DNA from: a virus
Length of the DNA: 64,000 nucleotides
Virus record (IMG/VR): IMGVR_UViG_3300033150_000473
Coordinates: 10,999-74,998 of that record
Reading direction: 5' to 3' (one strand)
Position numbers and translations under genes: made by a program. The notes beneath the pieces are model-generated. The model was not told the DNA's origin and did not search any database. It worked only from the letters and a program-made list of their open reading frames with translations. Positions 7,276-27,232 of this stretch are shown one piece after another (position 1 is the stretch's first letter; each line of letters begins with the position of its first letter).

Positions 7276-7316
7276 GTTTTTCAAGTTTTAGGGTTTTCCA
7301 TATCAATCAGGCCAGT

Positions 7317-7436: not shown

Positions 7437-7557
7437 TTTCGAATGACAAACAAATACGAGATATGGAAAACCTTGCCTCTCGGCAAAACACAAGGCAATG
7501 CCCCATTGGTGTTGGTAGGGCCGAAGGGTCTCGAAGGCTCCGGGGTGAAATAAGCAG

Positions 7558-9009: not shown

Positions 9010-10560
9010 ATGCCGCAAATGCAGTTGCAAATCAGAGACGAGATGCGCGCCAGCGTGCGCCAGTTCCCCAGGCATCAGCCGATCATCTTCCGCGTTGCTA
9101 TGACGGCGGATGGAGTTCCGGCCTGGTGGGGCAAAGACCGCGACGCTTACCTGCGCCTTTTCTGGCAGCAGGAGAGTTTCCTGGCAAGCACGGTCTACGC
9201 GCTATGTGCCCGTAACGCAGGCTTCCAATGGGTCGTCGAGGGGCCAGAAGCCGAGAGCTTGCAAGCCACAAGAACCCTGCGCAACGTAGAGTTTGGTCAG
9301 GGCTGGCAGCAACTGATGCTTCAGTTCTCAGAGGACTTGTTAGTCAGTGACAACGGGGGATTTATCGAGATTATCCGGCCAGCACGGGCTAGAATCAACG
9401 GCAAGAGCTATCCGGCCATCGCCAAGAGGCACAAAAGCGGCGACATAGACTGGTTTGCTATCATCAGCCGCATGGGCCACGTGAAGCAGGTAGAACCGGA
9501 GGACGTCAGCGACTCGCCCTACGACCTACCGGTTAGCTTGGCTCACCTAGATTCTGCAAAAGTCACGCGCACCGGAGACCCCGACACCCCTGTGATCTAC
9601 ACAGATCGCAACGGAGGCGAGCATGAGTTGAAGTCATGGCAGGTGATGAGCATGACTGACATGCCGTCACCCATTGAGGAGATGCACGGGGTGGGCTTTT
9701 GCTTCGTCAGTCGCGTTCTCAGAAACGCCCAAACCGTGAGAGACTGGACTATCTTCCGGCAAGAGAAAATCAGTGGCCGGTTTGCCAGAGCGGTTCACCT
9801 CACCAACGTAGATTCTGACTGGATTTCTGATGCTATTGCCCAGGCTCAAGCCAAAGCAGACGAACGGGGGCTTCTAGTCTACTCTCAGCCCATCATCACC
9901 AATACACTTGACCCTAGTTCCAGGCCGTATCTTGTAACTATTCCGCTGGCTGAGTTGCCAGACGGGTTCACCGAAGACGAGACCATGCGCTGGTACATCG
10001 GGCTTCTGGCATTGGCGGCAGGGGAGCATTACAGCTTCCTCGCCCCCATGCCTGGTAGACGATTGGGATCAGCCAGAGAAGTCGAGGTGCAGGAACGACA
10101 GGCGCGAGGCAAATCGTCTCGGCTGTTCATGGATCAGTTGGCTACCCAAATCAACAACGCCGGTATCTTGCCGGAGGGATGTGTATTCGTCTTCCGAGAA
10201 AAGGACACCGAAGAACAAGCGGCACACGAGCAAGCCGAACGCAGGCGGGCCGAGACCCGCAAGATGCGCATCGAGAGCGGCGAGATAACACCAGCGATTG
10301 CCAGGCAGATTGCCAAAGACCAGGGCGACTTGAAAGACGAATACCTGCAACAACTAGGCGAGGAGGATATTACACCGGATGAAGGCGAACCATTGGAGAG
10401 CGTAGATGGGGTGGAGGAGAAACAGGAAGAACCCCTGGATATTTCCAAAGACGACGTGGCGCGAGCTATCGGCAAGTGGAATGACCGTATGTCGGAGGCC
10501 GAGGGTCTTCTACAAGCGTCCGAGGCGGAAAAAACCGCGGGAGGACTAGATGCCGAGTAA
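9010..10560 (+). CDS. portal protein
   Basis: 516 aa; position in the head module; DLLVSDNGGFIEII and GVGFCFVSR portal-like segments. Confidence 0.8.
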   Translation: MPQMQLQIRDEMRASVRQFPRHQPIIFRVAMTADGVPAWWGKDRDAYLRLFWQQESFLASTVYALCARNAGFQWVVEGPEAESLQATRTLRNVEFGQGWQQLMLQFSEDLLVSDNGGFIEIIRPARARINGKSYPAIAKRHKSGDIDWFAIISRMGHVKQVEPEDVSDSPYDLPVSLAHLDSAKVTRTGDPDTPVIYTDRNGGEHELKSWQVMSMTDMPSPIEEMHGVGFCFVSRVLRNAQTVRDWTIFRQEKISGRFARAVHLTNVDSDWISDAIAQAQAKADERGLLVYSQPIITNTLDPSSRPYLVTIPLAELPDGFTEDETMRWYIGLLALAAGEHYSFLAPMPGRRLGSAREVEVQERQARGKSSRLFMDQLATQINNAGILPEGCVFVFREKDTEEQAAHEQAERRRAETRKMRIESGEITPAIARQIAKDQGDLKDEYLQQLGEEDITPDEGEPLESVDGVEEKQEEPLDISKDDVARAIGKWNDRMSEAEGLLQASEAEKTAGGLDAE

Positions 10561-11296
10561 AATCGAACTTCCCTATGGTTTGGGAGCGCGCTACAAAGAC
10601 GACGACCGCGACTGGCGCTACAGGCGCGGAGCTTTGGTACGCAGCGGCACGCACAGGCCACCAGTGGTAGACAACCGTCACCTGTTCATCAGGATACCCG
10701 TGTGGAATCAAGGGAAAGAGGGTGCTTGCACTGGAATGGCGATGGCTGGAGCACTGAGCGAGATTTACGGCCAAGAACTCAGTCCCCGTTTCATGTTCGA
10801 GGCGGCCAAAGAGCACGACGAGTGGCCTGGTGAGGACTACGACGGGTCTTCGGTGCGAGGTGCAGCCAAAGCCGCGGCCTCTGTAGGCTGTTGTCTGCAC
10901 AACTTGTGGCCGTTCGCGCCCTTCCAGACAGGGGGGAAAGACCCGAATGCTAACACTGATGCCAAGCTGCATGTGCTTACCAGCTACGAGCGACTAGGTT
11001 CGCTCAGGGAGATACTACATGCCATCTGGGACATGGGATACGTGGTAGCGACGGTTGACGTGCACACAGGGTGGATCAGGCCAACGAGGAAGCACAGGAT
11101 ACGCTATCATCCCAGGTACATCAGCCGTGGACTTCACGCAGTCTTGTTCTGTGGCTACGACGAGAAGACCGGCTACTTGTTGCTTCGCAATTCTTGGCGG
11201 GACGACTGGGGCGATGCGGGGTATGCCTGGTTGAAGTTCGATGACTGGATGGCAAACGGCCAGGATGCGTGGATGGTTGTCAATGAGGCATACTAA
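10550..11296 (+). CDS. papain-family (C1A) cysteine peptidase
   Basis: WNQGKEGACTG (Gln/Cys), GLHAVLFCGY (His), LRNSWRDDWGDAGY (Asn). Confidence 0.9.
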   Translation: MPSKIELPYGLGARYKDDDRDWRYRRGALVRSGTHRPPVVDNRHLFIRIPVWNQGKEGACTGMAMAGALSEIYGQELSPRFMFEAAKEHDEWPGEDYDGSSVRGAAKAAASVGCCLHNLWPFAPFQTGGKDPNANTDAKLHVLTSYERLGSLREILHAIWDMGYVVATVDVHTGWIRPTRKHRIRYHPRYISRGLHAVLFCGYDEKTGYLLLRNSWRDDWGDAGYAWLKFDDWMANGQDAWMVVNEAY

Positions 11297-12411: not shown

Positions 12412-14751
12412 ATGACAGAGCTCATCCAACTACCAGTAGGCACAGACCACCGTGGCCTGCACCTGAAGCCGCCGCACGGCGAACTGATAGCAGACGGCTA
12501 CAAGACGCAGATCGCCAAGGCGAAGCCGTTTGACCTGTCAGGCCCGTGGATACTGATTTCGGGTGGCAAGGCATGGGGCACGATGGAAGTCGGGTTGCCT
12601 GAACCGATTGACGTCGAGGGGTTTGACAAGGCGTTTGGGGAACACCGCGTTTCCGTTACGGAAAGAAAGAAGTGGTGGACTGGCAAAGAGACATTGTATC
12701 TGTCAGAGATCACAGCGTTCGAGCCGTTCAAGAAGACTCTGGACATCCAGGTCATCCCTGGGATGCAGACTGTTATTGAGACTGTGGAGTTCATAACTGC
12801 TGAACCAGACCTGTTGGAACACTGCGAACAGGTACGGTTGGTGATTGGGAGCACGGAAAAAGAGACAACCGGGGATACAACCTGGATTGAGGCCGAAGAA
12901 AAAGCGGAGGCGAACATGGAAACAGAGGAAAAGGCCGCTGGGACAGAAGGCGCTGAGGGAGCACCAACGGCGGAGGCAATTGAGATAGGTTCCAAGCCAT
13001 ACGACCCAAAAGACCCACCCGCTAAGGTGCGGGGAATGCCGGAGAAGGCCCAGCGCATCTGGGTTCACGCCTACAACAGCGCTCTTGAGAAGTATCCCGA
13101 CGACGAAGCGCGTTGCCACAAGATCGCCTACGGCGCTGTGAAAAACGCGGGCTACTACCAGGACAAAGACGGTGCTTGGCACGCCCCGAAGGAGAAAAAG
13201 GAGATGGATGAGGGCCAGAAAGAACTGGGTGAGGGCCAGGGGGTTGACGGCCCGCGGCAGGGAGTCGGAGGTGCAGAAGTTTGTCGCTGCCCCTCTTGCG
13301 GTTACGAGATGGAACACGAGCGGGGCACGCCATGTGCTGAGATCAAGTGCCCCAAGTGTGGCGCGGCCATGCAGGGTCAGCCACAAGAATCCAAAGCGAC
13401 TTGGGATACTGCCTATGTCAACTCTTTGGGCGACGGATGCTTCCTCCACATTGAAGCTGGGGGCGACAAGGATGAAACTGGGCGCACGAAGCCTAGATCA
13501 CTGCGCCACCTGCCCTACAAAAACCAGGCCAACGAGATAGATTTGCCGCATCTCCGAAATGCCATCTCGCGCCTCGGTCAACCGAAGACCGGCAAGGGCT
13601 GGCTGACTGAAGACCTACGCAAGCGCTTGTTGGCTAAAGCCCGCGGCATCCTAGCGAAGCAGAACAAGACAGATTCAAAGAATGTCTTGGTGTGGCTCAA
13701 AGAGAAGTTCGATGGCATCCTTGACGGCCTCCGTGAGCCACCCGAATTGGGCATGACGTTCAAAGCAATAGATGGCCGTACCTGGCTTTTGACCTGGACG
13801 ACCAACGCTTTCCAGGACAGGGAGGAAGAAACTTTCCGTACCAAGGCCATCGAGGACTACGTAGCCCGTCACGCTGATGACGAAACCAAAGGGGAGTTCT
13901 GGTTCTGGCATCTCCCTGGAGCGAAGATGGCCCAGATAGAATGGCAAGCAGTCGTAGGGCGTTTCTTGGTGGAAGCAGGGCCGTTCGATGACACGCCGAC
14001 CGGTCGCAAGATGGCTGAGTTCTTCAGCCAGCACCCACACGACCATCCCGAAATCGCACCTGAAGGATGGGGGACGTCGCACGGCTTCAAGTATGTCGAC
14101 GCAGATCGCGCCGACAAGATTTACGATTGGTTTGACAAGTTCGAGACAACGGTACTTCCCAAGTCTGCGGCCTCAAACCAGCACAGTCCAAAGATGGAGG
14201 TATTACCGATGAACCAACAGCAGAAAGACGCTCTAACCGCCATCGCTGGTGATGAGTTTGTGAACATGGTCATCAAGACTGGCGAGGAGCGGACGAAGGA
14301 GCTAGAGGAACGGGGCATCGCTTTCAAGGAGACCGAGGAAGTCGCCGAGGAAGTGGAAACCGAAGAGGTGGCCGAAGTCAAAGAGGCCGAAGAGGCCACA
14401 GAGACTGAAGAGGTCGAGGAAACCGAAGTCAAAGAGACTGACTCCCAGATGACTGCGCTGGCACAACAGATCGTTGCTGGCTTGAACCTTGGGACGATGA
14501 CCGAGGCGATCAAGTCCATTCAGGACACGGTGAAGGCTATCGCTGGCAGCCAGGTAGAGCAGGACAAGCGGCTCAAGGCACTAGAGGACATCGGTGGCGA
14601 ACAATCAGCTCCACTGATCCCATTGCCCCGCGCCACCTACTGGCAGGCTAGTCGAGTGGCCCAGACCGAACCTGACGAGAAGCTGGCCGACAAGGCTCAG
14701 CCCAAAGTGCCCGACGCCATCAGCGAGATGGCTAAGCGCATTCCGATCTAA
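12412..14751 (+). CDS. multidomain prohead protease/scaffold fusion (ASCH-like, ChaB, Zn-finger, protease-like, acidic scaffold)
   Basis: ChaB motif AQRIWVHAYNSA...AYGAVK; CRCPSC...CPKC; TNAFQDREEE...FWH...GTSHGF...TVLP..A.N protease-like region; Glu-rich tail; directly precedes the capsid gene. Confidence 0.7.
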   Translation: MTELIQLPVGTDHRGLHLKPPHGELIADGYKTQIAKAKPFDLSGPWILISGGKAWGTMEVGLPEPIDVEGFDKAFGEHRVSVTERKKWWTGKETLYLSEITAFEPFKKTLDIQVIPGMQTVIETVEFITAEPDLLEHCEQVRLVIGSTEKETTGDTTWIEAEEKAEANMETEEKAAGTEGAEGAPTAEAIEIGSKPYDPKDPPAKVRGMPEKAQRIWVHAYNSALEKYPDDEARCHKIAYGAVKNAGYYQDKDGAWHAPKEKKEMDEGQKELGEGQGVDGPRQGVGGAEVCRCPSCGYEMEHERGTPCAEIKCPKCGAAMQGQPQESKATWDTAYVNSLGDGCFLHIEAGGDKDETGRTKPRSLRHLPYKNQANEIDLPHLRNAISRLGQPKTGKGWLTEDLRKRLLAKARGILAKQNKTDSKNVLVWLKEKFDGILDGLREPPELGMTFKAIDGRTWLLTWTTNAFQDREEETFRTKAIEDYVARHADDETKGEFWFWHLPGAKMAQIEWQAVVGRFLVEAGPFDDTPTGRKMAEFFSQHPHDHPEIAPEGWGTSHGFKYVDADRADKIYDWFDKFETTVLPKSAASNQHSPKMEVLPMNQQQKDALTAIAGDEFVNMVIKTGEERTKELEERGIAFKETEEVAEEVETEEVAEVKEAEEATETEEVEETEVKETDSQMTALAQQIVAGLNLGTMTEAIKSIQDTVKAIAGSQVEQDKRLKALEDIGGEQSAPLIPLPRATYWQASRVAQTEPDEKLADKAQPKVPDAISEMAKRIPI

Positions 14752-14764
14752 GGAGAGTGAAACA

Positions 14765-16210
14765 ATGGATCAAAGACAAATCGACGCGCTCAGCATGGCT
14801 ATTGCACAAGCGATAGGCCAGAAGGCTCCTGCTACGACTCCTAGCGGCTCGTGGATGCACGGGCCAGGCGGGCTGTTTGCAGGTACGGCCATCGACAAGC
14901 GGGTGCTGAGTCTACGCATTGCCCCACGGGGTATCTCTAGTGTGCTGCGGGCGTTTCCGTCCGCGTACACCAATCCTGAGTTTGGCTATCTGACGGGGAC
15001 CATTCAGTCAGCCGGACAAACTCAACCTAGCGACGAATGCTCCACCTGTGTCCACGGGGAAACGCAGTCCTGTGTGCAGACCGCGCAGTTTGGGCGAATC
15101 TGTGCCGAGACCAAGACCCTGACGATCCAGAGAGCAATCGAGCGCGTCAACCGCATGGACGTCGACTACACCCTGGTCAACGACCTGTTTGGTGAAGATT
15201 TTGCCAAGGACTTCTTCCGCGGCGTGCGGAAGATCGACAACAGCAAGGTCATGCAACTGTCAGTAGCCTGGGCCATGGTCGAAGTCGGAGTGCTCTTGCA
15301 GAACCTGGGCGTACCAATGGTCTGGCAGGGCAATCCAACCAATAGTGTCGGCACGGGCTACATGGAGTTTCCTGGACTGGACATCCTGATCGGTGTCAAC
15401 AAGGTCGATGCTCATACAGGGAACTCTTGCAACTCTCTGGACTCTGATGTCAAGGAGTTCAACTACGCCAGTGTCAATAGCGTCGATGCCGCAGGGAACT
15501 TCCACATCGTGCGCTACATGGAGGCTATGGAACACTACCTGTACCACAACGCCTCTCGGCAGGGTTTCTTGCCCGTTGAGAAGGTCATAGTTATGCGGCC
15601 TGAGTTGTGGCAGGAGTTCTCTATGATCTGGCCCACGGCATGGATGGCAACACGGAACATCGTGCTACCTGCCGGAAATACCAACTTCCTGGACGCAACT
15701 CGCATCAGGGAAATGGTGGCTGAGCTACAGCGCACTATGACGCTGGAACTGAACGGGCGTCGCTATCAGGTCATCCTGGACGATGGTGTCTTCGAGTATA
15801 CCAACGTCAACGACGCCAACGTTCCTGCTGGGTCTTATGCCAGCAACATCTACTTTGTCCCGACCCGCGTCATGGGGCAAAGGGACGTCTGTTTCTTCGA
15901 GCATCTGGACTACCGCGCAGGTCGCCAAGAAGCCGCAGACGCTAGGCTCCAGCAGACCTACTGGACGGACGATGGCAGGTTCTTGTGGACGCACGAGACC
16001 ACGAAGTTTTGTTTCACGGTCTCCGGCGAGATGAAGCCACGGGTCATCCTGCTGACGCCGCAACTGGCTGGCAGGATCAACCACGTGCTATACTCGCCGC
16101 TGCAACACCTGCGGAGCTACGACCAGGATTCGAGTTACTTCTTCAAGGGAGGCGAGTCAAGTCGTGGCGCTCCCTCGCTCTTCAGTGACTGGAACTTGCC
16201 GCGACAGTAA
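14765..16210 (+). CDS. major capsid protein
   Basis: 481 aa after protease/scaffold; AAGGAG RBS; VWQGNP...EFPGLD...IVMRP pattern of HK97-fold capsids. Confidence 0.8.
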   Translation: MDQRQIDALSMAIAQAIGQKAPATTPSGSWMHGPGGLFAGTAIDKRVLSLRIAPRGISSVLRAFPSAYTNPEFGYLTGTIQSAGQTQPSDECSTCVHGETQSCVQTAQFGRICAETKTLTIQRAIERVNRMDVDYTLVNDLFGEDFAKDFFRGVRKIDNSKVMQLSVAWAMVEVGVLLQNLGVPMVWQGNPTNSVGTGYMEFPGLDILIGVNKVDAHTGNSCNSLDSDVKEFNYASVNSVDAAGNFHIVRYMEAMEHYLYHNASRQGFLPVEKVIVMRPELWQEFSMIWPTAWMATRNIVLPAGNTNFLDATRIREMVAELQRTMTLELNGRRYQVILDDGVFEYTNVNDANVPAGSYASNIYFVPTRVMGQRDVCFFEHLDYRAGRQEAADARLQQTYWTDDGRFLWTHETTKFCFTVSGEMKPRVILLTPQLAGRINHVLYSPLQHLRSYDQDSSYFFKGGESSRGAPSLFSDWNLPRQ

Positions 16211-16394
16211 CAGATAAAACTGAGATGGGCGACGTCCCATTACTTCCAAAAACAGGGAAGTCATTCGTGCACTGCGGGTCAACCTACACTACCCTGGTGA
16301 GCTACGTTAGCACATCGCAGACGATAGCACGCCGACATCTAACTATGTGCCCGGAATCGCGGGTGGCTTCCCATTACTAAACAAGGAGTGTTCA

Positions 16395-17351
16395 ATGCCA
16401 TACTGGAACGGTCGTCGTATCGTCGTCACGGGGGGATGCGGTATGATTGGGGCCCCCTTAGTCCGACTGCTAGTGGAGCATGGGGCGACAGTAATCGTCT
16501 TGGACGATCTCAGCCGTGGATATACACAAATTGAGGGAGCGTCTTACCTGAGAGGCGACGCTGGCTCTATGACCAGGTGCGTGGAAACCTTTCAGCGCGC
16601 TGACGGTGTGTTTAATCTAGCAGCTACGGTGGCTGGGGTAGACTACAACATGGCCCACCAACTTGCCATGTACAGCGCCAATATGCGGCTACAACTTGTT
16701 CCTGTCCTGGCGGCGGTGGAGGCCAGGGTTAGGCGGTTCGTGCAATGTTCAAGTGCGTGTATCTATTCGCCTGAGTATAACCACCCAGCAAAGGAAGATT
16801 ACGGGCACGCGGGGAATCCACATGCAGGCAATGCGGGTTATGCTTGGGCCAAGCGTATGGGTGAGCGGGCTTTTCTATGGTCAGGATTGAACGGAGTGAT
16901 CGTCAGACCGTTCAATTCGTATGGCCCTTTGGACTACTATGACGAACGGGCGCACGTTATCCCTGCGCTTATTAAGAAGTGCTTACAGGATGATGTGGTA
17001 AAGGTAGCCTCTAGGGACACAGTGCGAGAGTTCATCTACTCCGCGGACGTAGCTGAGGGAATGGTCGCAGCCTATCAGTGGGGACGCAACCAAGGTATCT
17101 ACAACCTAGGAACAGGAGGAAAGACGGCGGTTAAGATACGTGGCTTGACCATGATGATACTCAATATCATGGGACTAAAGGACAGCCCACCGGTAGAATG
17201 GCTAGACAGCAGGGCAGGTGATGAGATACGCTTTAGTGACTGTACCTTGGCAGAAAAAGAACTGAATTGGCACTATCGCACTGGGTTAGTTGAGGGATTG
17301 GGGAAGGCCATAACTTGGTATCAGGAAGCGAGGGAAAATGTCGGGCTATAG
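16395..17351 (+). CDS. NAD-dependent nucleotide-sugar epimerase/dehydratase (GDP-sugar epimerase-like)
   Basis: VTGGCGMIG Rossmann motif, SSACIY, YAWAK catalytic YxxxK, REFIY; AAGGAG RBS before ATG 16395. Confidence 0.92.
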   Translation: MPYWNGRRIVVTGGCGMIGAPLVRLLVEHGATVIVLDDLSRGYTQIEGASYLRGDAGSMTRCVETFQRADGVFNLAATVAGVDYNMAHQLAMYSANMRLQLVPVLAAVEARVRRFVQCSSACIYSPEYNHPAKEDYGHAGNPHAGNAGYAWAKRMGERAFLWSGLNGVIVRPFNSYGPLDYYDERAHVIPALIKKCLQDDVVKVASRDTVREFIYSADVAEGMVAAYQWGRNQGIYNLGTGGKTAVKIRGLTMMILNIMGLKDSPPVEWLDSRAGDEIRFSDCTLAEKELNWHYRTGLVEGLGKAITWYQEARENVGL

Positions 17352-18045
17352 GGTCCTTGTACTCACCAGTGACCATTACTTGCACGCCTTGCAACCGTTC
17401 AGTTTCTTGTTCAATAAGTTCTGGAGTCCAGAGCAAGAGGTTGTAGTCGGTGGTTTCAAGCAGCCTGAGTTCATGTTGCCACCCAACTTCACCTTCGTGT
17501 CCCTAGGCGACATGAAAGACTATCCCATCGACAAGTGGTCGGACGCCTTTATCAAGTTCCTGAACATTGTGCCCGATGAAGTGTTTGTCTTCATGCTCGA
17601 AGACTACTGGTTGACGCGACCGGTAGACGTGGAAGCGGTCAAGATTCTGTATGACTACATGGAACAATTCAAGTACGTCTTGAAAATTGACCTCTGTGCT
17701 GACCGTCTCTATGCCATGAATATGCAGTCCTACGGATGGGTTGGGCGTTTGGACTTGGTGAAGTCGGACAGGGGTTCACCGTACCATATGAGCCTGATGA
17801 CGGGCTTGTGGCGAAAGAAACTGTTGCTGAAACACGTCATCCCTGGAGAGTCGCCTTGGGACATCGAGATCAGGGGCACGCGTAGGTTGTCCCTGGACGG
17901 CGACGATATTGTGTTAGGTTCGAGGCAGTGGCCCGTGAGGCATCTTCTAGCATACAGGGGTGGTGACAGTAGCAGCGGAGCCGACGTGTCTGCACTAAAG
18001 CCAGAAGACGTTGCTGAAATGGAGAAAAGGGGGTATCGGTTATGA
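17338..18045 (+). CDS. putative GT-A fold glycosyltransferase
   Basis: VFMLEDYWL DxD-like motif; GESPWDIE; operon context. Confidence 0.6.
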   Translation: MSGYRVLVLTSDHYLHALQPFSFLFNKFWSPEQEVVVGGFKQPEFMLPPNFTFVSLGDMKDYPIDKWSDAFIKFLNIVPDEVFVFMLEDYWLTRPVDVEAVKILYDYMEQFKYVLKIDLCADRLYAMNMQSYGWVGRLDLVKSDRGSPYHMSLMTGLWRKKLLLKHVIPGESPWDIEIRGTRRLSLDGDDIVLGSRQWPVRHLLAYRGGDSSSGADVSALKPEDVAEMEKRGYRL

Positions 18046-19199
18046 AAAAAGTGACCGTGGGGACCTTCACGGCGACGGAGCGAATGCGTGAATTGGTGAA
18101 CGAGGTCTTGAATACAGGCCGAATCTCCTACGGCCCAATGTCGCGGGAGTTCGAGCGCAAGTTTGCCTCGATCCACGAGAGCCAATTCGGTATATTGTCC
18201 AACAGCGGCACTAGCAGTCTTCTAGTAGCTTTGCAGGCTATGAAAGAACTGTATGGCTGGCGAGACGGCACAGAAGTCATAGTACCGTCAGTGACTTTCG
18301 TCGCTACCATCAACATCGTGCTGCATTGCCGCATGAAACCTGTGATAGTGGATGTAGAACCCGATTGCTACGGCATGGATCCAGGGTTACTCCATCGCGC
18401 CATCACCGACCAGACTAAAGCAATCATCCCTGTGCACCTCTTTGGGATGCCCTGTGATATGACGGCCATCAGTGAAATCGCTGACTTGTATAGCCTCAGA
18501 ATCATCGAAGACAGTTGCGAAAGCATGTTTGTGCGCCATGCTGGCCGTATTTCGTGGGGCGATATTGGGTGTTTCTCTACTTACGTGGCACACTTGATCA
18601 CGACAGGCGTCGGTGGCATAAGTACGACAGACAACGAAGACTTAGCTATCAGGATGCGGTCTCTAGTCAATCACGGGCGTGACAAGGTTTACATCAGCAT
18701 CGACGATGACGATAATTTGTCTGAAGCCCGATTGAAGGAAGTGATTGGCAAGCGACTCCGTTTTGGCTCTGTGGGTCATAGTTTCCGTATCACGGAACTT
18801 GAAGCCGCTTTAGGTCTAGCCCAACTGGAAACATGGCAGGAGATGATCAGAAAGCGGCAGGGGAACGCCCAATACCTGACCGTGAAGTTGAGCGCTTATC
18901 CACAATTACAACTACCGACGATCCGAGACAACACGGGGCATGCTTTTATGATGTACCCAATCGTAGTTAGGGAAGGGGGCAAGTGGGGTCTAGTACACCA
19001 TCTAGAAGCCAACGGTATCGAGACCAGGGACATGCTTCCAGTTACCAACCAGCCTGTTTACCAGGATTGGTTGAACGAAGACGATTATCCTGTTGCCAAA
19101 TGGATCAACCAAGGTGGCCTATATTTGGGCTGCCATCAAGACTTGACGGTTGAAGACTTGGACTGGATCATCTACCAGGTTGACCGGTTCTACTCTTGA
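18042..19199 (+). CDS. DegT/DnrJ/EryC1/StrS-family PLP enzyme, His-type (3-dehydratase-like)
   Basis: NSGTSSL, PVHLFG, IEDSCES; STYVAHLITTG has His in place of the usual Lys. Confidence 0.9.
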   Translation: MKKVTVGTFTATERMRELVNEVLNTGRISYGPMSREFERKFASIHESQFGILSNSGTSSLLVALQAMKELYGWRDGTEVIVPSVTFVATINIVLHCRMKPVIVDVEPDCYGMDPGLLHRAITDQTKAIIPVHLFGMPCDMTAISEIADLYSLRIIEDSCESMFVRHAGRISWGDIGCFSTYVAHLITTGVGGISTTDNEDLAIRMRSLVNHGRDKVYISIDDDDNLSEARLKEVIGKRLRFGSVGHSFRITELEAALGLAQLETWQEMIRKRQGNAQYLTVKLSAYPQLQLPTIRDNTGHAFMMYPIVVREGGKWGLVHHLEANGIETRDMLPVTNQPVYQDWLNEDDYPVAKWINQGGLYLGCHQDLTVEDLDWIIYQVDRFYS

Positions 19200-20719
19200 A
19201 CATCGAAGTTTGGTGGAAGGGCAAGAAAATCATCTACGTCATTGGCTATCCACGCTCAGGTACGACGTGGATAGCTAGAGCCATTGCTTGCGCTTTGGAC
19301 TGTCCGATGTTGGGGGCGGCCGCGGAATGGACAGCACCACCGCCAGACGTTGAGGGGTTGGATAGAGAGAGCGAATATGCTGTACGGCGTGTGCATTTCC
19401 CAGAGGAAAAGTTCCTGGGAAGAACAGCCGACCACGAGGTTGTTGGTGTCATCTTCTCTGTGCGTGATCCACGAGATGTTGCGCTTTCAGCATGGCGCTA
19501 CTTTACTTACAGCAAGGATCAGGAGGGTTTGTGGAATTGCGTCAACCAATTGTCGGGAGTAGGACATGATGGTGCTCCCCTCCAACCACAGCGATGGGCT
19601 GGCAGAAATCGGCGTGGCTGGCCTGGTTATGTGGAAGATTGGTTAGGCACTCCATCGATACGTTACGAAGACCACCTGAGAGACCCAGAAGGCGAACTGA
19701 CCAGGGTTTTGGAGGAACTTGGCTTCCAGATACCGCAAGAGAGAATTGCCGCCGCTGCCGAAGCCAATCTCTTTCACAACCGCAAGAGAGACAGCCTCAT
19801 GTTTCGAGGCAAAGCAGGCATGTGGCGGTTTGAGTTAGAACCAGAGATGGTGGAGACTATCGAGGAACATTGCGGCGACATCATGGAACGACTGGGGTAC
19901 ACAAAAGGAGATACTATGTCAAGTGTTGAGGAACTGCGTGAGAGGGTAGAGGGATTGAAACACCTTGATACACCTGGGCTTTCTGAATCATGGCAAGGAC
20001 GCCGCAAGACGATCAGCGAACATATCCTGGGGCATGACTTGTTGGATTTCCTGAATTGGGCTGTAATCAGGAGCACGATGTTTGTAGGAGACGCCCCCTA
20101 CATTCCCGCGAAGTTGAAAGCGATGCGCAAAGTACGAAAAGGCTGGCGTCGCTGGCGCAACGCAATGAAAGAGGACGACTTTGGTGGTGCTCTCAGACTA
20201 CCAAAAGAGAGTTGGACGAGCGGGAATCTCATCAACCAGGGGAGCCACCTCCACATGTTCGAGCAACTAACGGGCTTGAGTGTCAACGACATGCCTGCCA
20301 TTGGTGACTTTGCAGGCGGCTATGGAGCGATGGCAAAGATTATTAGGCGGCTTGGCTTTGAAGGGCCTCTGGCTACCTACGAGATGCCAGAGATGGCCGC
20401 CTTGCAGCAGTTCTATCTGGAAAACATCGGCATCGACGATGTGCAATCCCTGTATCATCTAGAGGACTTCATCGATGTGTTCAAGGATGGAGGTCTGTTC
20501 ATCTCTATCTGCGGCCTCAGCGAACTACCGTTTGCCCTCCGGTTGAGCATCCTAGAAGAGGTGAAAGCAACAGCTTACCTGATCGTCTATGGTCATATCT
20601 GGGACGGGAAAGATAACGAGAAACTCTTTGGCCGGTTTATGAAAAAGCACCCTGAGATTTCTTGGCAGCGGGGTAATTGCATCTACACCCATCGCTACCT
20701 GATAGGTGTGACCAGGTGA
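19196..20719 (+). CDS. sulfotransferase fused to a putative sugar O-methyltransferase-like domain
   Basis: GYPRSGTTW (5'-PSB loop), RDPRDVALS (3'-PB), FRGKAGMW; C-terminal half has a DFAGGYG SAM-like motif. Confidence 0.8.
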   Translation: MNIEVWWKGKKIIYVIGYPRSGTTWIARAIACALDCPMLGAAAEWTAPPPDVEGLDRESEYAVRRVHFPEEKFLGRTADHEVVGVIFSVRDPRDVALSAWRYFTYSKDQEGLWNCVNQLSGVGHDGAPLQPQRWAGRNRRGWPGYVEDWLGTPSIRYEDHLRDPEGELTRVLEELGFQIPQERIAAAAEANLFHNRKRDSLMFRGKAGMWRFELEPEMVETIEEHCGDIMERLGYTKGDTMSSVEELRERVEGLKHLDTPGLSESWQGRRKTISEHILGHDLLDFLNWAVIRSTMFVGDAPYIPAKLKAMRKVRKGWRRWRNAMKEDDFGGALRLPKESWTSGNLINQGSHLHMFEQLTGLSVNDMPAIGDFAGGYGAMAKIIRRLGFEGPLATYEMPEMAALQQFYLENIGIDDVQSLYHLEDFIDVFKDGGLFISICGLSELPFALRLSILEEVKATAYLIVYGHIWDGKDNEKLFGRFMKKHPEISWQRGNCIYTHRYLIGVTR

Positions 20720-20723
20720 GTTA

Positions 20724-21422
20724 ATGGAACAGAAAGAAATCTACGTAACTGCATTCCCAAGGTCAGGCAACACGTGGCTCAACCGCCTGCTGGCTGACGT
20801 GCTCAATTCGCCCATGCAAACCCAGCCCAACGCTGTCGTCAATTGGGCTAGTGAAGGGCGGGATGGCGATTACGTACTGCGTAAGGCGCATAAGTTGGGA
20901 TACGAGAAAACTGACGGGAAGTGGATATTCATCCAGCGAGACCCGCGGGACGTTGCTGTATCGGCTATGTATTACAGCAAATCTCCCTCTTTGTTAGAAA
21001 CGCTTATGACACTGTTGTGTCGGTGTGAACCCTGGAAACCAGGGATATTCCGCAAAGTTGGCGTCTACGAGCGTTGGGTGAGGTCGTGGTTAGATACAGG
21101 GTTAGCAGATGTAGTAACGAAGTACGAGATTTTGCACGCTGATCCCGTGCACGAGCTTAGTCGCATCGTCAGTGTTCTTACCGGATTGTCTTTAGACATG
21201 GATTGGATTAGAGAGTGTGTGCAGCGTCAGTCGTTTGACGTTGTTGCCAAGTCTCGAAAGGGGGACTTAGCTATGCGCAAAGGCATCGTCGGTGACTGGC
21301 GCAATCATTTCACTCGTCCTGAAGGGCATTTGCTGAACGATTATCTAGGGGAGTTCATGTACGAACAGCGGTACATTGAAAAGTTTGACTGGTGGGTAAA
21401 CTTACCCATGGAAAGGACATAA
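20724..21422 (+). CDS. PAPS-dependent sulfotransferase
   Basis: AFPRSGNTWL, RDPRDVAVS, RKGIVGDWRNHF. Confidence 0.92.
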   Translation: MEQKEIYVTAFPRSGNTWLNRLLADVLNSPMQTQPNAVVNWASEGRDGDYVLRKAHKLGYEKTDGKWIFIQRDPRDVAVSAMYYSKSPSLLETLMTLLCRCEPWKPGIFRKVGVYERWVRSWLDTGLADVVTKYEILHADPVHELSRIVSVLTGLSLDMDWIRECVQRQSFDVVAKSRKGDLAMRKGIVGDWRNHFTRPEGHLLNDYLGEFMYEQRYIEKFDWWVNLPMERT

Positions 21423-21425
21423 TGC

Positions 21426-24056
21426 ATGCCGACTTTTTACGTACACCCGTCCCCCGCTCGTGGGGAGATCGACTTCGGTGTTATCAAGCGCATCATTGAG
21501 GTACACCAACGTCAACTGCCGAGGCACGGCTGGAAAGAGGTTAGCACCGAGGCCCACGCGCAGTTGGTAGTCGGACACCTGGGTGCAAACTCTGAGAAAC
21601 TAGACGTTTTCCATTTGCATGGCTTCTATCCCACTGGGATGCTCGAAGACATGCCCAAGCAATGTTGGGCTGCCAACTCGGCCATCATCGAGAATGTCAG
21701 GCGAGCCAAGAATGTTATTGCCGTCTCGGAGTGGGTTGCTGAGACTTTACGCCGTGACATGCATCTGGATCCGATGGTGTGCGGTCATGGCATAGACTTG
21801 GACGTGTGGGCCAAAGTCAAAGCCGTGAAGAGAAAACCGTATGTCTTGTGGAACAAGAACCGGACACTTGGTGTATGTGACCCGCAGCCAGTGATCGAAC
21901 TTGCTCAACGTTTACCTAAACTGGATTACGTCACTACGTTTCTACCTGGAGACGCAAAACCTACTAAGAACATCTCAGTAACGGGTACTCTAGCTACATC
22001 GAAGATGTGGCCTTTGGTAAAAGGGGCATCTGTCTACCTGGCTACGACGAAAGAGACATTCAGCATCAGTGTCTTGGAAGCGATGGCTTCTGGAGTGCCG
22101 GTGGTTGGTTTCAACTGGGGCAACGTGCCGGTACTGATTGACGGTTGTGGGGTATTAGTTGAGCCGTATGATTACGACGGATTAGCAGAAGCGGTTGAAG
22201 AAGCACTGGATCGCAGGGATGAGTTCGGGGCAAATGGGAAGGAGCATGTCAAGCAATTCACGTGGGATAGGGTGGTCTGGCGATTGGCACGTCTCTACCA
22301 AGAGTGTTTGGAGGAACACAAAGGCCCGAAAGTCACGGTAACAATCCCATGTAAAGATTATGGCCGGTATGTCAAACAGGCGATTGAATCTGTCTTTGCC
22401 CAGACATTCGAGGACTGGGAACTGTTTATTGTCGATGACGGGAGCAGTGACGACAGCGCTGCTGTGATCCGAGAGACTATTGCCGATGAACCACGAGCCC
22501 GTTACTTGCGCCACGAAAACGCGATGGGGGTAGCTCATGCTCGCAACCGTGGCATCAGCGAAGGCAGAGGTATGTACGTTAGTTGCCTGGATGCCGATGA
22601 CATCATGGAGCCTGAGTTTCTAGCAAAGATGGTCGCAGCGATGGACGAAGACCCGAAACTGGGTCTAGCCTATAGCGGTTTGCGCCTCATGGACGAGAAC
22701 GCATCTGCGGCAGACAATGTTCATGCCTTCCCAGGGCAGTATGATCCAGAGAGAGGCATGAAGGGAAACCAAATCCCCACACTCAACATGTTCCGCAGGG
22801 CCACCTGGAAACGACTTGGTGGTTATCGACAGAGGTTCGCTCCTCATGGTGCAGGGCTTGAAGACGGTGACTTCTGGTCACGAATACTCGCTTGTGGTGG
22901 GGGTGCTCGCAGGGTTACGGATGAAGGGTTGTTTCTCTACCGCATACACGCTAAATCAGCGACCAGAACATATCACGACAAAGGGAGTCCCTGGTACGAT
23001 TGGCAGCCGTGGAAAGATAACGACAACCATCCATTCGCCTCTCAGTTGGGCATCCCACCAATGGGGTCTTGGGCGGTAAGAGACTACGACCGTCCCAGAA
23101 TCGCTATAGTAGTTCCTGTAGGGCCTTACCACAAGTTGGACATGATCAACGCCCTGGATTCTGTAGAAGCACAGACTTATCGTTTCTGGGAATTGATCGT
23201 AGTCAACGATACAGGAGAACCATTGGATCTCAGCGCCTGGCCGTTTGCCAAGTTGATTGACACAGAGAAGGCCAGTACGGGACCTGGTCACAGTCGTAAC
23301 TTGGGGACGGCTGCGTCGAGTGCGCCACTGGTTGTTTACTTGGATGCTGATGATGTACTACAACCCACTTTCCTGGAAGACACGTTGAGTCTTTGGTTGG
23401 ATGTGGGTGGTTGGATTTACACTGATTTCTTCTATACCAAAGCAGACGGAGCACGCAACATCTGGCAGGCGAAAGAATGGGATGCCGAGAGGTTGTGGGA
23501 AAAGGGCGTGGCAGCGGTAACAGGTTTGTATCCAGTTCAAGCCTGGGAGGATGTAGGGGGTTTTGACGAACAGATCGCTCACGAAGATTGGGAGTTCCAC
23601 ATCAAATTGGCTCTTGCGGGTTGGTGTGGGACGCGGTTGGCGAAACCGCTCATCACCTACCAGCACGACACAGGGAAGCGACGCGAGGAATGTATCGCCG
23701 CCGAGGGGTTCAAGCAAGTCAAGAGGCGCTATGCCAAGGAGAGCCTAATGGGGTGTAATTGTGGGAAGGGTGGCGGGGTGGTAAGGAAGATTCGCCGGCC
23801 AGTAGAGAAGGTAGAAAGTATCGACTTAGACCCATCCGTGCTACCTGCTAAGTCTGATGACAGCTACAGGCTCATCATGTACGTTGGCAAATCCAAGACC
23901 GACCTGATGTTCCGGGGCAGGACGGGGAAAACTTACATCTTCAGCACAGCGAGACGGTTAGCCTGGGCTGACCCACAAGATGTTGGGAGACTAGCCCGCA
24001 AGTCTGTATTGCGCATCGTGCAAGAGGAGACAGCCCGTGCGAGCCTCAACGTATAG
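21426..24056 (+). CDS. tri-domain glycosyltransferase (GT4 + GT2 + GT2) with C-terminal extension
   Basis: ETFSISVLEAMASG (GT4); VDDGS...ARN...LDADD; VND...SRN...LDADD...HEDW. Confidence 0.92.
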   Translation: MPTFYVHPSPARGEIDFGVIKRIIEVHQRQLPRHGWKEVSTEAHAQLVVGHLGANSEKLDVFHLHGFYPTGMLEDMPKQCWAANSAIIENVRRAKNVIAVSEWVAETLRRDMHLDPMVCGHGIDLDVWAKVKAVKRKPYVLWNKNRTLGVCDPQPVIELAQRLPKLDYVTTFLPGDAKPTKNISVTGTLATSKMWPLVKGASVYLATTKETFSISVLEAMASGVPVVGFNWGNVPVLIDGCGVLVEPYDYDGLAEAVEEALDRRDEFGANGKEHVKQFTWDRVVWRLARLYQECLEEHKGPKVTVTIPCKDYGRYVKQAIESVFAQTFEDWELFIVDDGSSDDSAAVIRETIADEPRARYLRHENAMGVAHARNRGISEGRGMYVSCLDADDIMEPEFLAKMVAAMDEDPKLGLAYSGLRLMDENASAADNVHAFPGQYDPERGMKGNQIPTLNMFRRATWKRLGGYRQRFAPHGAGLEDGDFWSRILACGGGARRVTDEGLFLYRIHAKSATRTYHDKGSPWYDWQPWKDNDNHPFASQLGIPPMGSWAVRDYDRPRIAIVVPVGPYHKLDMINALDSVEAQTYRFWELIVVNDTGEPLDLSAWPFAKLIDTEKASTGPGHSRNLGTAASSAPLVVYLDADDVLQPTFLEDTLSLWLDVGGWIYTDFFYTKADGARNIWQAKEWDAERLWEKGVAAVTGLYPVQAWEDVGGFDEQIAHEDWEFHIKLALAGWCGTRLAKPLITYQHDTGKRREECIAAEGFKQVKRRYAKESLMGCNCGKGGGVVRKIRRPVEKVESIDLDPSVLPAKSDDSYRLIMYVGKSKTDLMFRGRTGKTYIFSTARRLAWADPQDVGRLARKSVLRIVQEETARASLNV

Positions 24057-25263
24057 CTTGGTTAGTTTATCACAGTTTGCCCAGATACTCGGGCTCGACC
24101 CGCTGCATTTCGCGGGAGGTCACAGCGCGTTGAGGCCAGTAGGTGCTCATTGCCACGACGTATGGACGCAATACCAGTGGCAAGACCCTGGGAAAGCCAG
24201 CAGAGAAGAGATCGCCCGCTCCCTGAAACGCGCCGAGGAAGAGATTGCTGACATCTGTGGTTACTATGCAGCGTGGAAGTGGATCGCTGATGAGAGACAT
24301 AAACTAGACCGCGGCGGATCGTGTTGCAACGTTGCCAGGACGCGCCTCGTCACCAAGAGAAAACATGTGCTCGGTGGTGGGGCTAAAGCTATCAGCGACA
24401 TTGATGATGTCACCAGGGAGGCAGACATAGACCCTGATGGTGACGGGTTTGCTGAAACGGCTGTCTTCACTCTCGCCAATATCCCTACCACGTGGGATTT
24501 GGAAGAGATCAGAGCCTGTTACAAAGTGTACGCTCCTGGTGATGCGGAGAACTGCCGCACAGACCCATCCAGTGATGGATACGACGAAGCATGGGAAGTA
24601 CGCCCTCTGAAACTAAGCCGCAGTGACACTACGGTAACGGCTTATCTTCCTGTGTGGCATTTGTTCAAGCCAGAACTGTACGAGCGGCTAAACCCTAGTC
24701 AAATCAATGCCGACGACGCCAATAGTTATGTAGACACGCTCAGCTTCTACCGCGTTTATACTGACTTATCATCTCAGGCATCATTCATGTGGGGGACGGA
24801 TTGCGTCTACGACGTTAGCTGTGCCTGGGCCATACAGCCTGGGTGCATCCGTACCCCTGATCCGCGAACTGGCATAGTCACCGTCGTCCCTGGGACGTGG
24901 GACGCTGACAATGATCGTTACAACGCTACCAGCTTCACGTACAACACAGTACCGGATGCGGTGCGGCTCTGGTATCGTGCTGGACTTGAACGCCCAGCTC
25001 CTGGGATAGTTGACAGTAGAATGGCGCGGCTGATTGTCATATTGGCTTGTACCAGACTCGACTATCCCATCTGCACCTGCGGAAACGCACAAACGTTGGT
25101 GGCTAACTGGCGAGAGAATGCAGCCAGGGCGAGCAAAGAGAGAACGTTCATGTTGACACCACAGATGCTCCAGAATGTGCTGGGGATGCGTGTCGGAGAG
25201 ATCACCGTGTGGTCAGCTCTCAATATCCCTAGCACGAGGGTAGGCAAAGCGGTGCGCACATGA
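24037..25263 (+). CDS. putative head-tail adaptor
   Basis: Position; VRLWYRAG motif resembling gp6/gp15-like connectors. Confidence 0.5.
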   Translation: MRASTYSLVSLSQFAQILGLDPLHFAGGHSALRPVGAHCHDVWTQYQWQDPGKASREEIARSLKRAEEEIADICGYYAAWKWIADERHKLDRGGSCCNVARTRLVTKRKHVLGGGAKAISDIDDVTREADIDPDGDGFAETAVFTLANIPTTWDLEEIRACYKVYAPGDAENCRTDPSSDGYDEAWEVRPLKLSRSDTTVTAYLPVWHLFKPELYERLNPSQINADDANSYVDTLSFYRVYTDLSSQASFMWGTDCVYDVSCAWAIQPGCIRTPDPRTGIVTVVPGTWDADNDRYNATSFTYNTVPDAVRLWYRAGLERPAPGIVDSRMARLIVILACTRLDYPICTCGNAQTLVANWRENAARASKERTFMLTPQMLQNVLGMRVGEITVWSALNIPSTRVGKAVRT

Positions 25264-25822: not shown

Positions 25823-27232
25823 ATGGCAGACGAAAAAGTTGGAAACAAGAGTTCCGGCGTTTTTCTCCTAGATCAATGTAACTCAGAGGCACAATTCCAG
25901 GGCTGTCTCCGAGTTACTGCGCCGACGCACTCACGGGGCGACATCACTGCGCACTACTGTTTTATCGGTGGCATACCGTTGCCGGTTGGACAGACACAGG
26001 GTGTCCCTACACCCTTCACGCCTAGCGTAGAAGCGCCAATGCAGGTACTGTGGCCCTGGTACAATCGCAGATGCCCGTTTACTATGGTAGTAGCTGTCAA
26101 GACTTGCTACGAAGGCCACGAGATCGCTCAATGGGATAGTGGCATCGACTACGCGGTCTACTTCCCCAAGAGCGAGATCACTGACGAAGGCTTTATGACC
26201 AACTTGACGCAGGGGTTGGATGACGCCGAAGAGGTGCTGATGAGCACCGTCACGCTCAACGCGGCCGACTGGGAGTTGTACGAGAAGCACACTCCTGGCA
26301 AACTGACACTACCTGACAGGCTCATCACTCAGATCAACCACATCGCCTACTGCGGTGGGCCTCTGTGTGCGAGTCTGTCCAGTGCTTGCAACCAGCCGTA
26401 TGATCCTGGTTGTCAGGACATCTGGATCGGCGGTGACGGTGGTCTTCTCTGGTTGTCTGTAGACGGTGGCCTGAACTGGACAGAGAAGGAAGGAAGCGGC
26501 GCAGGACAGTTGGATCTCGACGATGCGCTGTACGGCACGATGGACGTCGAGGCTCTGTACTGTGACCGCAGCGTCGTCTTGGTTTCTGCCGAGAACGGCT
26601 GTATCTACTACTCCCACGACGGGGGAACGACCTGGGTTACACCAAGTGACTGTTCGCAGATGGCCGTGGCCTTTGCAGGGTATCTGAAGAACATCTTTGC
26701 TGCCGGCGCGGGTCTGTGGAAGTCCATCGACGACGGGGTTTCCTGGACACAGCTTATCGCTGGTACGTTCCTAGACGTCTACTTCACGGTAGACGGAACT
26801 GGAGTCGCAATCACCGCAACGGATACCTACTACAGCACCGACAGTGGCGCTTCGTGGGTGACGTTGACAGCTTCTGGGCTGACGGCACAGACTGATGTGC
26901 AGTTGGTGAATGGCATGATCTGGGTCTCTGGCGGCGATGGCATGGCCTACACCAGGGATCAGGGTACGAACTGGACGGTCATCAACACTGACGCCTGGGA
27001 CGACTTCGTGTTCTTGACCTGCTACGTCGGCTACCGGCTGACTGGTGCGGGGAATACGGTGGGGCCGTTGCAGTACACGCTCGATGGTGGTGTGACCTGG
27101 TGGGACTTGACCATCAGCGGCTGGGTTGCTGAAGACCTGATAGTCTTGGCAGCTTGCTACGACCGCCTGATGATCGGCGGCGCAAGCGGGTTCCTGGCGC
27201 AAATGGTAACGAAGAGCCGAATGATAACCTAG
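25823..27232 (+). CDS. putative major tail protein with C-terminal Asp-box (BNR) propeller
   Basis: About 6 S/TxDGGxxW repeats; located just before chaperones and tape measure. Confidence 0.55.
   Translation: MADEKVGNKSSGVFLLDQCNSEAQFQGCLRVTAPTHSRGDITAHYCFIGGIPLPVGQTQGVPTPFTPSVEAPMQVLWPWYNRRCPFTMVVAVKTCYEGHEIAQWDSGIDYAVYFPKSEITDEGFMTNLTQGLDDAEEVLMSTVTLNAADWELYEKHTPGKLTLPDRLITQINHIAYCGGPLCASLSSACNQPYDPGCQDIWIGGDGGLLWLSVDGGLNWTEKEGSGAGQLDLDDALYGTMDVEALYCDRSVVLVSAENGCIYYSHDGGTTWVTPSDCSQMAVAFAGYLKNIFAAGAGLWKSIDDGVSWTQLIAGTFLDVYFTVDGTGVAITATDTYYSTDSGASWVTLTASGLTAQTDVQLVNGMIWVSGGDGMAYTRDQGTNWTVINTDAWDDFVFLTCYVGYRLTGAGNTVGPLQYTLDGGVTWWDLTISGWVAEDLIVLAACYDRLMIGGASGFLAQMVTKSRMIT

Follow-up and report, generated by a model that had tools for sequence, protein, structure and literature searches.

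A variable glycan island in the head module of an uncultured phage family, with a candidate sulfated form in some members

To our knowledge, glycosylation of particles by phage enzymes has been shown experimentally only in actinobacteriophages, and with simple glycans. In mycobacteriophages (Che8 and others of cluster F1), soluble phage glycosyltransferases (GTs) are reported to glycosylate the phage's own particle proteins in the cytoplasm, forming a glycan shield (PMC11256854, PMC12619734, PMC10877033), with the glycans at the C-termini of capsid and tail-tube subunits and the GT genes near the right genome end (PMC11256854, PMC12619734). In the chlorovirus PBCV-1, multi-domain GTs, namely A064R (two GT domains and a methyltransferase) and A111/114R (three GT domains), glycosylate the capsid in the cytoplasm independently of the host secretory machinery (PMC7019647). 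Here we analyse a six-gene cassette for sugar and sulfate chemistry that follows the predicted capsid gene of an uncultured ~75-kb phage. It lies in a 64,000-nucleotide stretch (the window) that comprises bases 10999-74998 of the 74,998-bp IMG/VR virus record IMGVR_UViG_3300033150_000473, which has direct terminal repeats. We lean towards reading the cassette as a virion glycosylation system, the sulfated, methylated deoxy-sugar variant of a glycan island that varies across a whole phage family; no description of a sulfated phage glycan was found in the literature searched.

The capsid-GT island and its variation across the family

Six plus-strand open reading frames (ORFs) fill positions 16395-24056 with overlaps or gaps of 3-20 nt (stop/start junctions 17351/17338, 18045/18042, 19199/19196, 20719/20724, 21422/21426 and 24056/24037). 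This map agrees with an earlier note, made from the sequence alone, that had described six tightly packed genes directly after the capsid gene, and its start for the first gene also stands: ATG 16395 has the ribosome-binding site AAGGAG (16383-16388) seven bases before it. Translational coupling ties the six genes to the structural genes, and promoter-like and terminator-like sites are no more frequent than chance. The G+C content of the island in the window is slightly lower (0.51-0.53 vs 0.54-0.57). The cassette and its flanking genes are as follows.

14765-16210, + strand: major capsid protein, 481 aa, predicted HK97 fold (AlphaFold model, pLDDT 72, and Foldseek); anchors the island.
16395-17351, + strand: extended short-chain dehydrogenase/reductase (SDR), nearest to GDP-L-fucose synthase (GFS) and UDP-Glc 4-epimerase (Pfam Epimerase, E 2.8e-43).
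17338-18045, + strand: 235-aa GT-A-fold protein of a virus-only family (AlphaFold model, pLDDT 94).
18042-19199, + strand: DegT-family protein, predicted sugar 3-dehydratase of the ColD/E1 type, dependent on pyridoxamine 5'-phosphate (PMP) (Pfam DegT_DnrJ_EryC1, E 2.9e-85, 287 bits).
19196-19915, + strand: sulfotransferase domain of a 507-aa fusion protein (Pfam Sulfotransfer_1, E 1.6e-11, residues 13-233).
19925-20719, + strand: methyltransferase-like domain of the same fusion (residues ~244-507), with GGYG as S-adenosylmethionine (SAM) motif I.
20724-21422, + strand: 232-aa sulfotransferase of the 3'-phosphoadenosine 5'-phosphosulfate (PAPS) type (Pfam Sulfotransfer_1, E 7.9e-14).
21426-23705, + strand: catalytic part of an 876-aa triple GT, with GT4 (~aa 1-296), GT2 (~297-530) and GT2 (~555-760) domains by Pfam.
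23748-24056, + strand: nested C-terminal module of the triple GT, 102 aa, not a GT, with a conserved internal start (Shine-Dalgarno (SD) sequence AAGGAG at 23736-23741, ATG at 23748).
24037-25263, + strand: conserved 408-aa protein, whose orthologs follow the triple GT in every locus reaching that far.

The 481-aa protein has no family match. Folded with 28 homologs, it gave a predicted HK97-type model whose top Foldseek matches in the PDB are all phage capsids or encapsulins (E ~1e-9), and because the model best matches phage capsids we assign the protein as the major capsid protein, in line with the placing of the cassette by the earlier note. It has 1,495 homologs, none annotated, the closest at 80% identity. 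The capsid family shows six invariant cysteines (C92, C95, C103, C113, C222 and C416) and a conserved PS[LF][WY]S[DE]WN motif in a C-terminal tail predicted to be disordered. The 408-aa protein, for which Pfam, PHROG and PDB-profile searches gave no match, marks the 3' border of the island.

Among 50,697 records of GenBank phages, none matched the capsid protein, the DNA of the region or the sulfotransferase, and none covered 80% of the triple GT. In IMG/VR, single-protein scans with the capsid protein or the sulfotransferase returned no matches and alignments were required; the alignment-based scan with the capsid family gave 38 loci. These loci establish two points as new here: the triple GT belongs to the conserved core of the head module in a large uncultured phage family, and the stretch that separates it from the capsid gene is a glycan island of variable content. 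When these loci are counted together with the sulfotransferase-based set described below, 34 have at least 9.9 kb of sequence downstream of the capsid gene, and in 30 of them the triple GT stands between capsid gene and 408-aa gene (capsid identities 31-53%); in two of the other four the sugar genes continue to the end of the retrieved DNA. Its distance from the capsid gene ranges from 0.1 to ~13 kb, being ~80 nt in L005-L009 and 2-13 kb elsewhere, and the Pfam tally of the 124 ORFs intervening in 18 loci, in which sugar-nucleotide and transferase families predominate, includes 22 SDRs, 10 GT2 enzymes, 10 GHMP kinases, seven methyltransferases, four DegT proteins and three cytidylyltransferases.

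The earlier note had proposed a synteny survey of sulfotransferases next to capsid genes, and such a survey revealed a further new feature: sulfotransferase-type islands, with the sulfotransferase between the capsid gene and the triple GT, recur in at least eight other phages of the same capsid family. Sulfotransfer_1 did not exceed its Pfam cut-off in any of 36 records of the first, capsid-based set; an alignment of 32 homologs of the 232-aa sulfotransferase led to 43 IMG/VR loci, eight of which (L044-L048 and L050-L052) repeat the arrangement of a capsid homolog (31-45% identity) followed by a GT-A-fold gene, then the triple GT and then the 408-aa gene. By Pfam, their islands hold eight Sulfotransfer_1, six Methyltransf_24 and four DegT proteins and two GT10 fucosyltransferases. 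Two of them, L047 and L050, have almost the same gene set as the phage studied here, with identities to it of 55-57% for the GT-A-fold protein, 53-61% for the dehydratase and 35-36% for the capsid protein; these sequence identities fit module exchange, though the enzymes may simply evolve more slowly. The metagenome scan yielded short contigs only, one of which (L092) has a weak GT-A-like gene and a sulfotransferase-like gene after the capsid gene.

Some loci add details of their own. An IS605 OrfB/TnpB (Cas12f-like) transposase gene is the only insert between capsid gene and triple GT in L004 (12501-13748). The islands of L011, L014, L016, L020, L022 and others hold 10 GHMP-kinase, six cREC_REC-domain and HNH/AP2 homing-endonuclease genes amid the sugar genes, which suggests phosphosugar or heptose-type pathways and mobile-element traffic. 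Loci L008 and L009 are two different capsid-GT-408 modules in a single 143-kb record (IMGVR_UViG_3300031566_000001, at 4-26 kb and 79-101 kb), probably an assembly in which the genomes of two related phages were joined. Among the relatives, L039 carries a provirus flag. Two weak binning hints point to Planctomycetota as hosts: a contig in a Thermogutta metagenome-assembled genome (MAG), itself phage DNA, carries a capsid homolog, and a 69.6-kb contig in a Planctomycetaceae MAG carries a sulfotransferase homolog.

Predicted functions of the cassette enzymes

The first gene, a sugar epimerase according to the earlier note, belongs to the Pfam family of that name, and its product is nearest to the GFS-like extended SDRs. 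The best alignment is with human GFS (PDB), where SSACIY and YawaK match the GFS Cys and YxxxK, and by sequence the protein is likely a reductase or epimerase/reductase of nucleoside diphosphate (NDP)-4-keto-(3,)6-deoxyhexoses (ColC/GFS-like). The third gene had been called a sugar enzyme dependent on pyridoxal 5'-phosphate; its product belongs to the DegT family, and its role is narrowed to that of a His-for-Lys dehydratase of the ColD/E1 type. In the alignment, His184 replaces the Schiff-base Lys of perosamine synthetase 3bn1 ('fgnKiittg'), and it is kept in 6/6 orthologs from related phages, whereas other DegT genes of related islands retain Lys. This replacement is the hallmark of the PMP-dependent 3-dehydratases ColD and E1, and the protein is, as judged from its sequence, a ColD-type sugar 3-dehydratase rather than an aminotransferase. 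Bit scores rank perosamine synthetase (178) above E1 (145) and ColD (118). The E1-type [2Fe-2S] Cys motif (C-X57-C-X-C-X7-C) was not found in the orthologs, whose only invariant Cys are C138, C159 and C177, and no E3-like reductase was seen; the enzyme is therefore ColD-like rather than E1-like. Since the colitose pathway likewise combines a ColD-like enzyme with a fucose-synthase-like reductase, the pair would make a 3,6-dideoxyhexose from a host NDP-4-keto-6-deoxyhexose. The phage encodes no second SDR, nucleotidyltransferase or Gmd, and without a nucleotidyltransferase it needs host NDP-sugars.

The 235-aa product of the second gene has no Pfam, NCBIfam or PHROG match, a PDB profile search with its family gave nothing usable, and the atlas clusters of the family are viral. 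The top Foldseek matches of its model in the PDB are almost all GT-A-fold glycosyltransferases (GT6, POMGnT1, B4GALNT1, SpsA; TM 0.4-0.54), a few being nucleotidyltransferases of the same fold. D89, D118 and R123 are invariant in 12 orthologs, with a conserved [ED]-D89-Y taken as the acidic DxD-like motif expected after beta-4. The predicted structure thus agrees with the GT-A assignment of the earlier note and makes the protein a probable glycosyltransferase.

The two sulfotransferases, also recognised earlier, score 44.6 and 52.1 bits against a Sulfotransfer_1 cut-off of 22, and both retain PAPS-binding motifs and the catalytic His. The 232-aa protein, the ortholog of the sulfotransferase in the related phage islands, has FPRSGNTW, K-x-H (H56), RDPRDVAVS and RKGIVGDWRN, all invariant or nearly so in the 32 homologs, and so keeps the RKGxxGDWRN motif of cytosolic sulfotransferases. 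Within the 507-aa fusion, the sulfotransferase domain has diverged from the main sulfotransferase of the family, a paralog with which it shares 24-29% identity: the phosphosulfate-binding loop PRSGTTW, His67 and RDPRDVALS are present, and the RKGxxGDW(K/R)N motif is degenerate (FRGKAGMWRF). Its best PDB matches are StaL and SULT1A1, with the catalytic His aligned to that of StaL. The TTG start of the gene overlaps the preceding stop; an alternative start at ATG-38 would remove the PAPS loop. The methyltransferase-like domain fused to it, likewise noticed earlier, is a separate gene in L047, L050 and L052, and its GGYG motif is invariant in four orthologs. A PDB profile search gave a weak match only (E 0.04), and the structural look-alikes of the domain in the atlas are models named sugar O-methyltransferases (TM 0.75-0.81); we grade it a probable sugar O-methyltransferase. 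Neither an APS (adenosine 5'-phosphosulfate) kinase nor other PAPS-synthesis genes were found in the phage genome, so that the phage must use host PAPS, as the earlier note had supposed.

A sulfate acceptor other than a sugar has to be considered at this point: the GTs could glycosylate a virion protein and the sulfotransferases act elsewhere, on tyrosine or another hydroxyl of a phage or host protein, or on a small molecule. The closest solved relatives, StaL (sulfation of a peptide phenol) and the cytosolic SULTs, would suit this, and no sequence feature specifies a carbohydrate acceptor. The surroundings speak for sugars, with the sulfotransferase inside a sugar island in 8/8 related loci, beside the GT-A-fold gene, methyltransferases, ColD-type enzymes or fucosyltransferases, and with one of the two sulfotransferases fused to a sugar-O-methyltransferase-like domain. 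We therefore regard a non-sugar acceptor as quite unlikely.

The last gene fits its earlier description as a GT4-GT2-GT2 fusion, with one Glycos_transf_1 and two Glycos_transf_2 regions. In 22 orthologs of 28-39% identity, E210/E218 (EX7E), D337-D338 and D389-A-D391-D392, and D595 and D640-A-D642-D643 are invariant or nearly so, and at such identities this indicates that all three GT domains are under selection. (A 941-aa ORF in L029, considered as a relative, proved unrelated.) The best family matches of the domains are TuaG, EpsE, WcaA and chondroitin synthase. The last of these raises the prospect of a product that never reaches the virion, namely a free or carrier-bound cytoplasmic oligo- or polysaccharide, made for example by processive GT2-GT2 synthesis and acting within the infected cell or once it has lysed. 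The first GT2 is most similar to a domain of the chondroitin synthase K4CP (E 4e-24), two-domain GT2 synthases can polymerise, and no acceptor was found; yet the resemblance to K4CP spans 170 residues and is of a kind generic to GT2 enzymes, and the fixed position in the head module and the fusion to a post-capsid module would be hard to explain, which makes a free polysaccharide very unlikely.

That post-capsid module follows the second GT2 and consists of M-G-C-x-C, a variable linker and a conserved, beta-rich stretch of ~55 residues. The SD before it in the window is identical to the strong AAGGAG before the capsid gene. The conserved Met/Val codon is preceded, at a distance of 5-12 nt, by an SD core of 5 nt or more in 13 of 20 orthologs and by one of 4 nt or more in 18, against backgrounds in the same genes of 1-8% and 7-23% per codon. 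Single-sequence searches found no shorter homologs of the module; a profile search did, with 922 proteins at E<=1e-3 among 1.84 billion representatives, either short proteins starting at the conserved Met or the C-termini of GT2-bearing proteins. Since many of the short 'standalone' copies are near-identical to the C-termini of long GT ORFs in complete contigs, we count true separate module genes only in three loci: L106, with the order capsid gene, module gene, 408-aa gene and no GT; L087, with a 120-aa 'MGCPSC...' gene directly after the capsid gene (10211-10573); and L011, with two tandem 'MGCxC' copies after the GT (10622-11076). Because of the conserved internal start and of these separate genes in the same slot, we infer that the ORF has a nested product and that its module descends from a small post-capsid protein to which the GT became fused; the module is likely also made as a free product, to go by its start signals. 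Free and nested forms begin Met-Gly-Cys-x-Cys or Met-Cys-Gly-Cys. The module ORF of L106 (5806-6435) can be read from a TTG, giving MNKLKQLILLAIMFTLFAC..., which resembles a lipoprotein signal peptide with the first Cys of the module motif as lipobox Cys; if real, this would suggest that the L106 copy is located in the envelope.

A sulfated glycan on the virion and its rivals

The reading we lean towards would run as follows. The cassette would be expressed late as a virus-encoded, cytoplasmic part of the head module, the GT4-GT2-GT2 enzyme building a short core glycan and its C-terminal module either bringing the enzyme to the assembling head or serving as acceptor. The swappable island genes would set the outer glycan chemistry. 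In this phage, the ColD-type 3-dehydratase and the GFS-like reductase would convert a host NDP-4-keto-6-deoxyhexose, most likely GDP-linked, to a 3,6-dideoxyhexose, the GT-A-fold enzyme would add a sugar, the methyltransferase domain would O-methylate the glycan, and the two sulfotransferases would O-sulfate it with host PAPS. The virion would thereby gain a coat of methylated, sulfated deoxy-sugar glycan on one of its proteins (the capsid protein, the nested module or a neighbour). The earlier interpretation, a sulfated deoxy-sugar glycan assembled late in the cytoplasm on capsid or tail proteins, is thus partly supported: the capacity for deoxy-sugar, methyl, sulfate and transfer steps is plausible, the genes sit in a late structural operon, export genes were not found and PAPS would come from the host. 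Which substrates the enzymes use and in what order, that the sulfate goes to a sugar, and that the glycan goes to a virion protein are put forward here as conjecture.

Several observations weigh against this reading. No glycan acceptor was found: C-terminal Ser/Thr acceptor tails like those of mycobacteriophages were sought on the capsid and 408-aa proteins and not found, the capsid protein ending in ...PSLFSDWNLPRQ and not in Ser/Thr, and across the relatives the type of C-terminal tail does not correlate with the presence of the triple GT. The second catalytic His of GFS ('GPHD') is Leu in the phage SDR, every NCBIfam match of which is far below its equivalog cut-off, so that a single reaction cannot be assigned. 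Known members of the SULT/StaL type also sulfate phenols and peptides, and for this reason it is the context that points to a sugar as sulfate acceptor. Many of the 'standalone' module copies are probably gene calls at the internal start. Finally, soluble GTs of lipopolysaccharide (LPS) and capsule synthesis also have no transmembrane (TM) segments and could use host lipid carriers and flippases.

The last point leads to remodelling of the host envelope, in which the soluble enzymes would act on host undecaprenyl-linked intermediates at the inner membrane and the host's initiating transferase and flippase would export the product, altering or masking the cell surface late in infection, for example against re-adsorption of progeny or superinfection. 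Many GT2 and GT4 enzymes of LPS, capsule and teichoic acid synthesis are soluble or peripheral, the GT domains here best match such enzymes (TuaG, EpsE, WcaA, chondroitin synthase), and ColD-type deoxy-sugar pathways are classically O-antigen pathways. As the earlier note had stated, the cassette proteins have no obvious TM segment (hydropathy peaks fall in Rossmann-type core strands) and no flippase accompanies them: a search for an initiating phosphoglycosyl transferase (Bac_transf) or Polysacc_synt/Wzx in 29 records (13 of the 29 at least 90% complete), namely this phage and 28 relatives, which did not extend to Wzy and ABC exporters, found none. That absence argues against export, as do the placing of the genes, which are flanked by and coupled to the capsid gene on one side and the following conserved structural gene on the other and do not lie near lysogeny or early genes, and the fusion of the triple GT to a module that has an internal start and is a post-capsid gene in relatives; known serotype-converting Gtr systems, moreover, are membrane proteins. 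On balance we hold envelope remodelling to be unlikely.

The genome layout bears on a last rival, the decoration of modified bases of the phage DNA by the GTs. Phage GTs with sugar epimerases do hypermodify 5-hydroxymethylcytosine DNA with diverse glycans, and such pathways adjoin C5-methylase/5mYOX or ThyS and DNA-metabolism genes (bioRxiv 10.1101/2023.12.21.572611). Here the plus strand from ~0.4 to 41.6 kb of the window is a single long late arm and the cluster lies in its head module among structural genes, and the minus-strand arm holds the replication and nucleotide genes (a DnaB-like helicase, ThyX, two N6/N4 DNA methylases and homing endonucleases). Neither a ThyA-type hydroxymethylase (PF00303) nor a C5 methylase (PF00145) was found in the phage genome, ThyX and the N6/N4 methylases being present instead; a Tet_JBP search of the genome gave no match, and control genomes were equally silent. 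DNA hypermodification is accordingly the most improbable of the explanations considered.

Returning to virion glycosylation, we tentatively put forward a broader version of it, in which an uncultured family of tailed phages, possibly on Planctomycetota, carries an O-antigen-like hypervariable glycan locus in its head operon, anchored by a three-domain GT fused to a nested capsid-associated protein and giving strain-specific virion 'serotypes', with a methylated, sulfated 3,6-dideoxyhexose coat in this phage and at least eight relatives. If true, self-glycosylation of virions would date far back and be retained throughout an environmental phage family, with a glycan chemistry (sulfate, methyl, dideoxy sugars) that varies as bacterial surface antigens do; this would imply strong selection on the virion surface, for example through recognition by hosts or grazers, through binding to sulfated matrices, or through charge or stability. 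For glyco-engineering, the locus would contribute soluble sulfotransferases, a GT that packs three steps into one compact enzyme, and possibly a tag that targets proteins to the capsid. Because the synteny holds at the level of the family, virion glycosylation can be tested directly.

Other features of the two arms are listed below.

1568-3880, + strand: terminase large subunit, in the late arm.
5725-8646, + strand: a 516-aa gene followed by the reverse transcriptase of a diversity-generating retroelement (Pfam RVT_1, E 6e-14), in the late arm.
10550-11296, + strand: papain-family (Peptidase_C1) cysteine protease between the putative portal gene and the capsid gene, matching PHROG 16701; could be an unusual prohead protease.
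12412-14751, + strand: 779-aa ChaB-domain protein directly 5' of the capsid gene, its C-terminal half kept across the phage family; may be scaffold-like.
25823-27232: 469-aa protein with BNR/Asp-box repeats (sialidase-like propeller signature) and 16% Ser+Thr, between the head genes and the tape-measure-like gene.
From 28035, + strand: tape-measure-like gene, weak PHROG match.
48169-49383, - strand: Glyco_hydro_cc family glycoside hydrolase in the early/replication arm; may be the lysin, as a canonical endolysin was not seen.

Relation to described systems

ColD is a GDP-4-keto-6-deoxy-D-mannose 3-dehydratase and ColC a GDP-L-colitose synthase. As in that colitose pathway, and as with E1 of the CDP-3,6-dideoxyhexose pathways, a His-for-Lys enzyme of the DegT fold is paired here with a GFS-like SDR; unlike ColD and ColC, the phage DegT protein scores higher against perosamine synthetase, the SDR is without one GFS catalytic His, and no Gmd or nucleotidyltransferase accompanies them. 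The whole locus resembles bacterial O-antigen and capsule loci in that conserved flanks (the capsid gene on one side, the triple GT and the 408-aa gene on the other) enclose a highly variable set of sugar genes and that modules are shared between distantly related genomes, and it differs from them in lying in a virus head operon and in that an initiating transferase and Wzx were not found in the 29 records. It also differs from Gtr-type serotype conversion, with its membrane flippase GtrA and with GtrB and GtrC, in having cassette proteins without TM segments.

The C and Nu3 genes of lambda are in-frame nested head genes of tailed phages. In a similar way, the conserved internal SD and start in a long head-module ORF would here yield a short protein that shares the C-terminal sequence of the long one; enzymes, and not a protease or scaffold as in lambda, make up the long form, and the two products are predicted from the sequence.

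Compared with those of the mycobacteriophages as described, the GTs predicted here are likewise phage-encoded, soluble, without TM segments, and on the same strand as the virion genes and coupled to them. Their genes lie instead between the capsid gene and the next structural gene, a three-domain GT is fused to a nested module and joined by sugar-nucleotide tailoring enzymes, a methyltransferase and two sulfotransferases, and Ser/Thr C-terminal tails were not found, the comparison being by description. With PBCV-1 the locus shares multi-domain virus GTs, methylation and virus-encoded sugar-nucleotide enzymes; PBCV-1, by contrast, is a giant virus of eukaryotes, its capsid of the double-jelly-roll type and its glycans neutral and N-linked; sulfation is not described there and the domains differ, the comparison again being by description (PMC7019647). 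Virion glycosylation by viral enzymes is already known. The present locus stands apart in where its genes lie, in the conserved triple GT and the module nested in it, in its variable island of sugar genes, in its predicted dideoxy-sugar enzymes and in its predicted sulfation.

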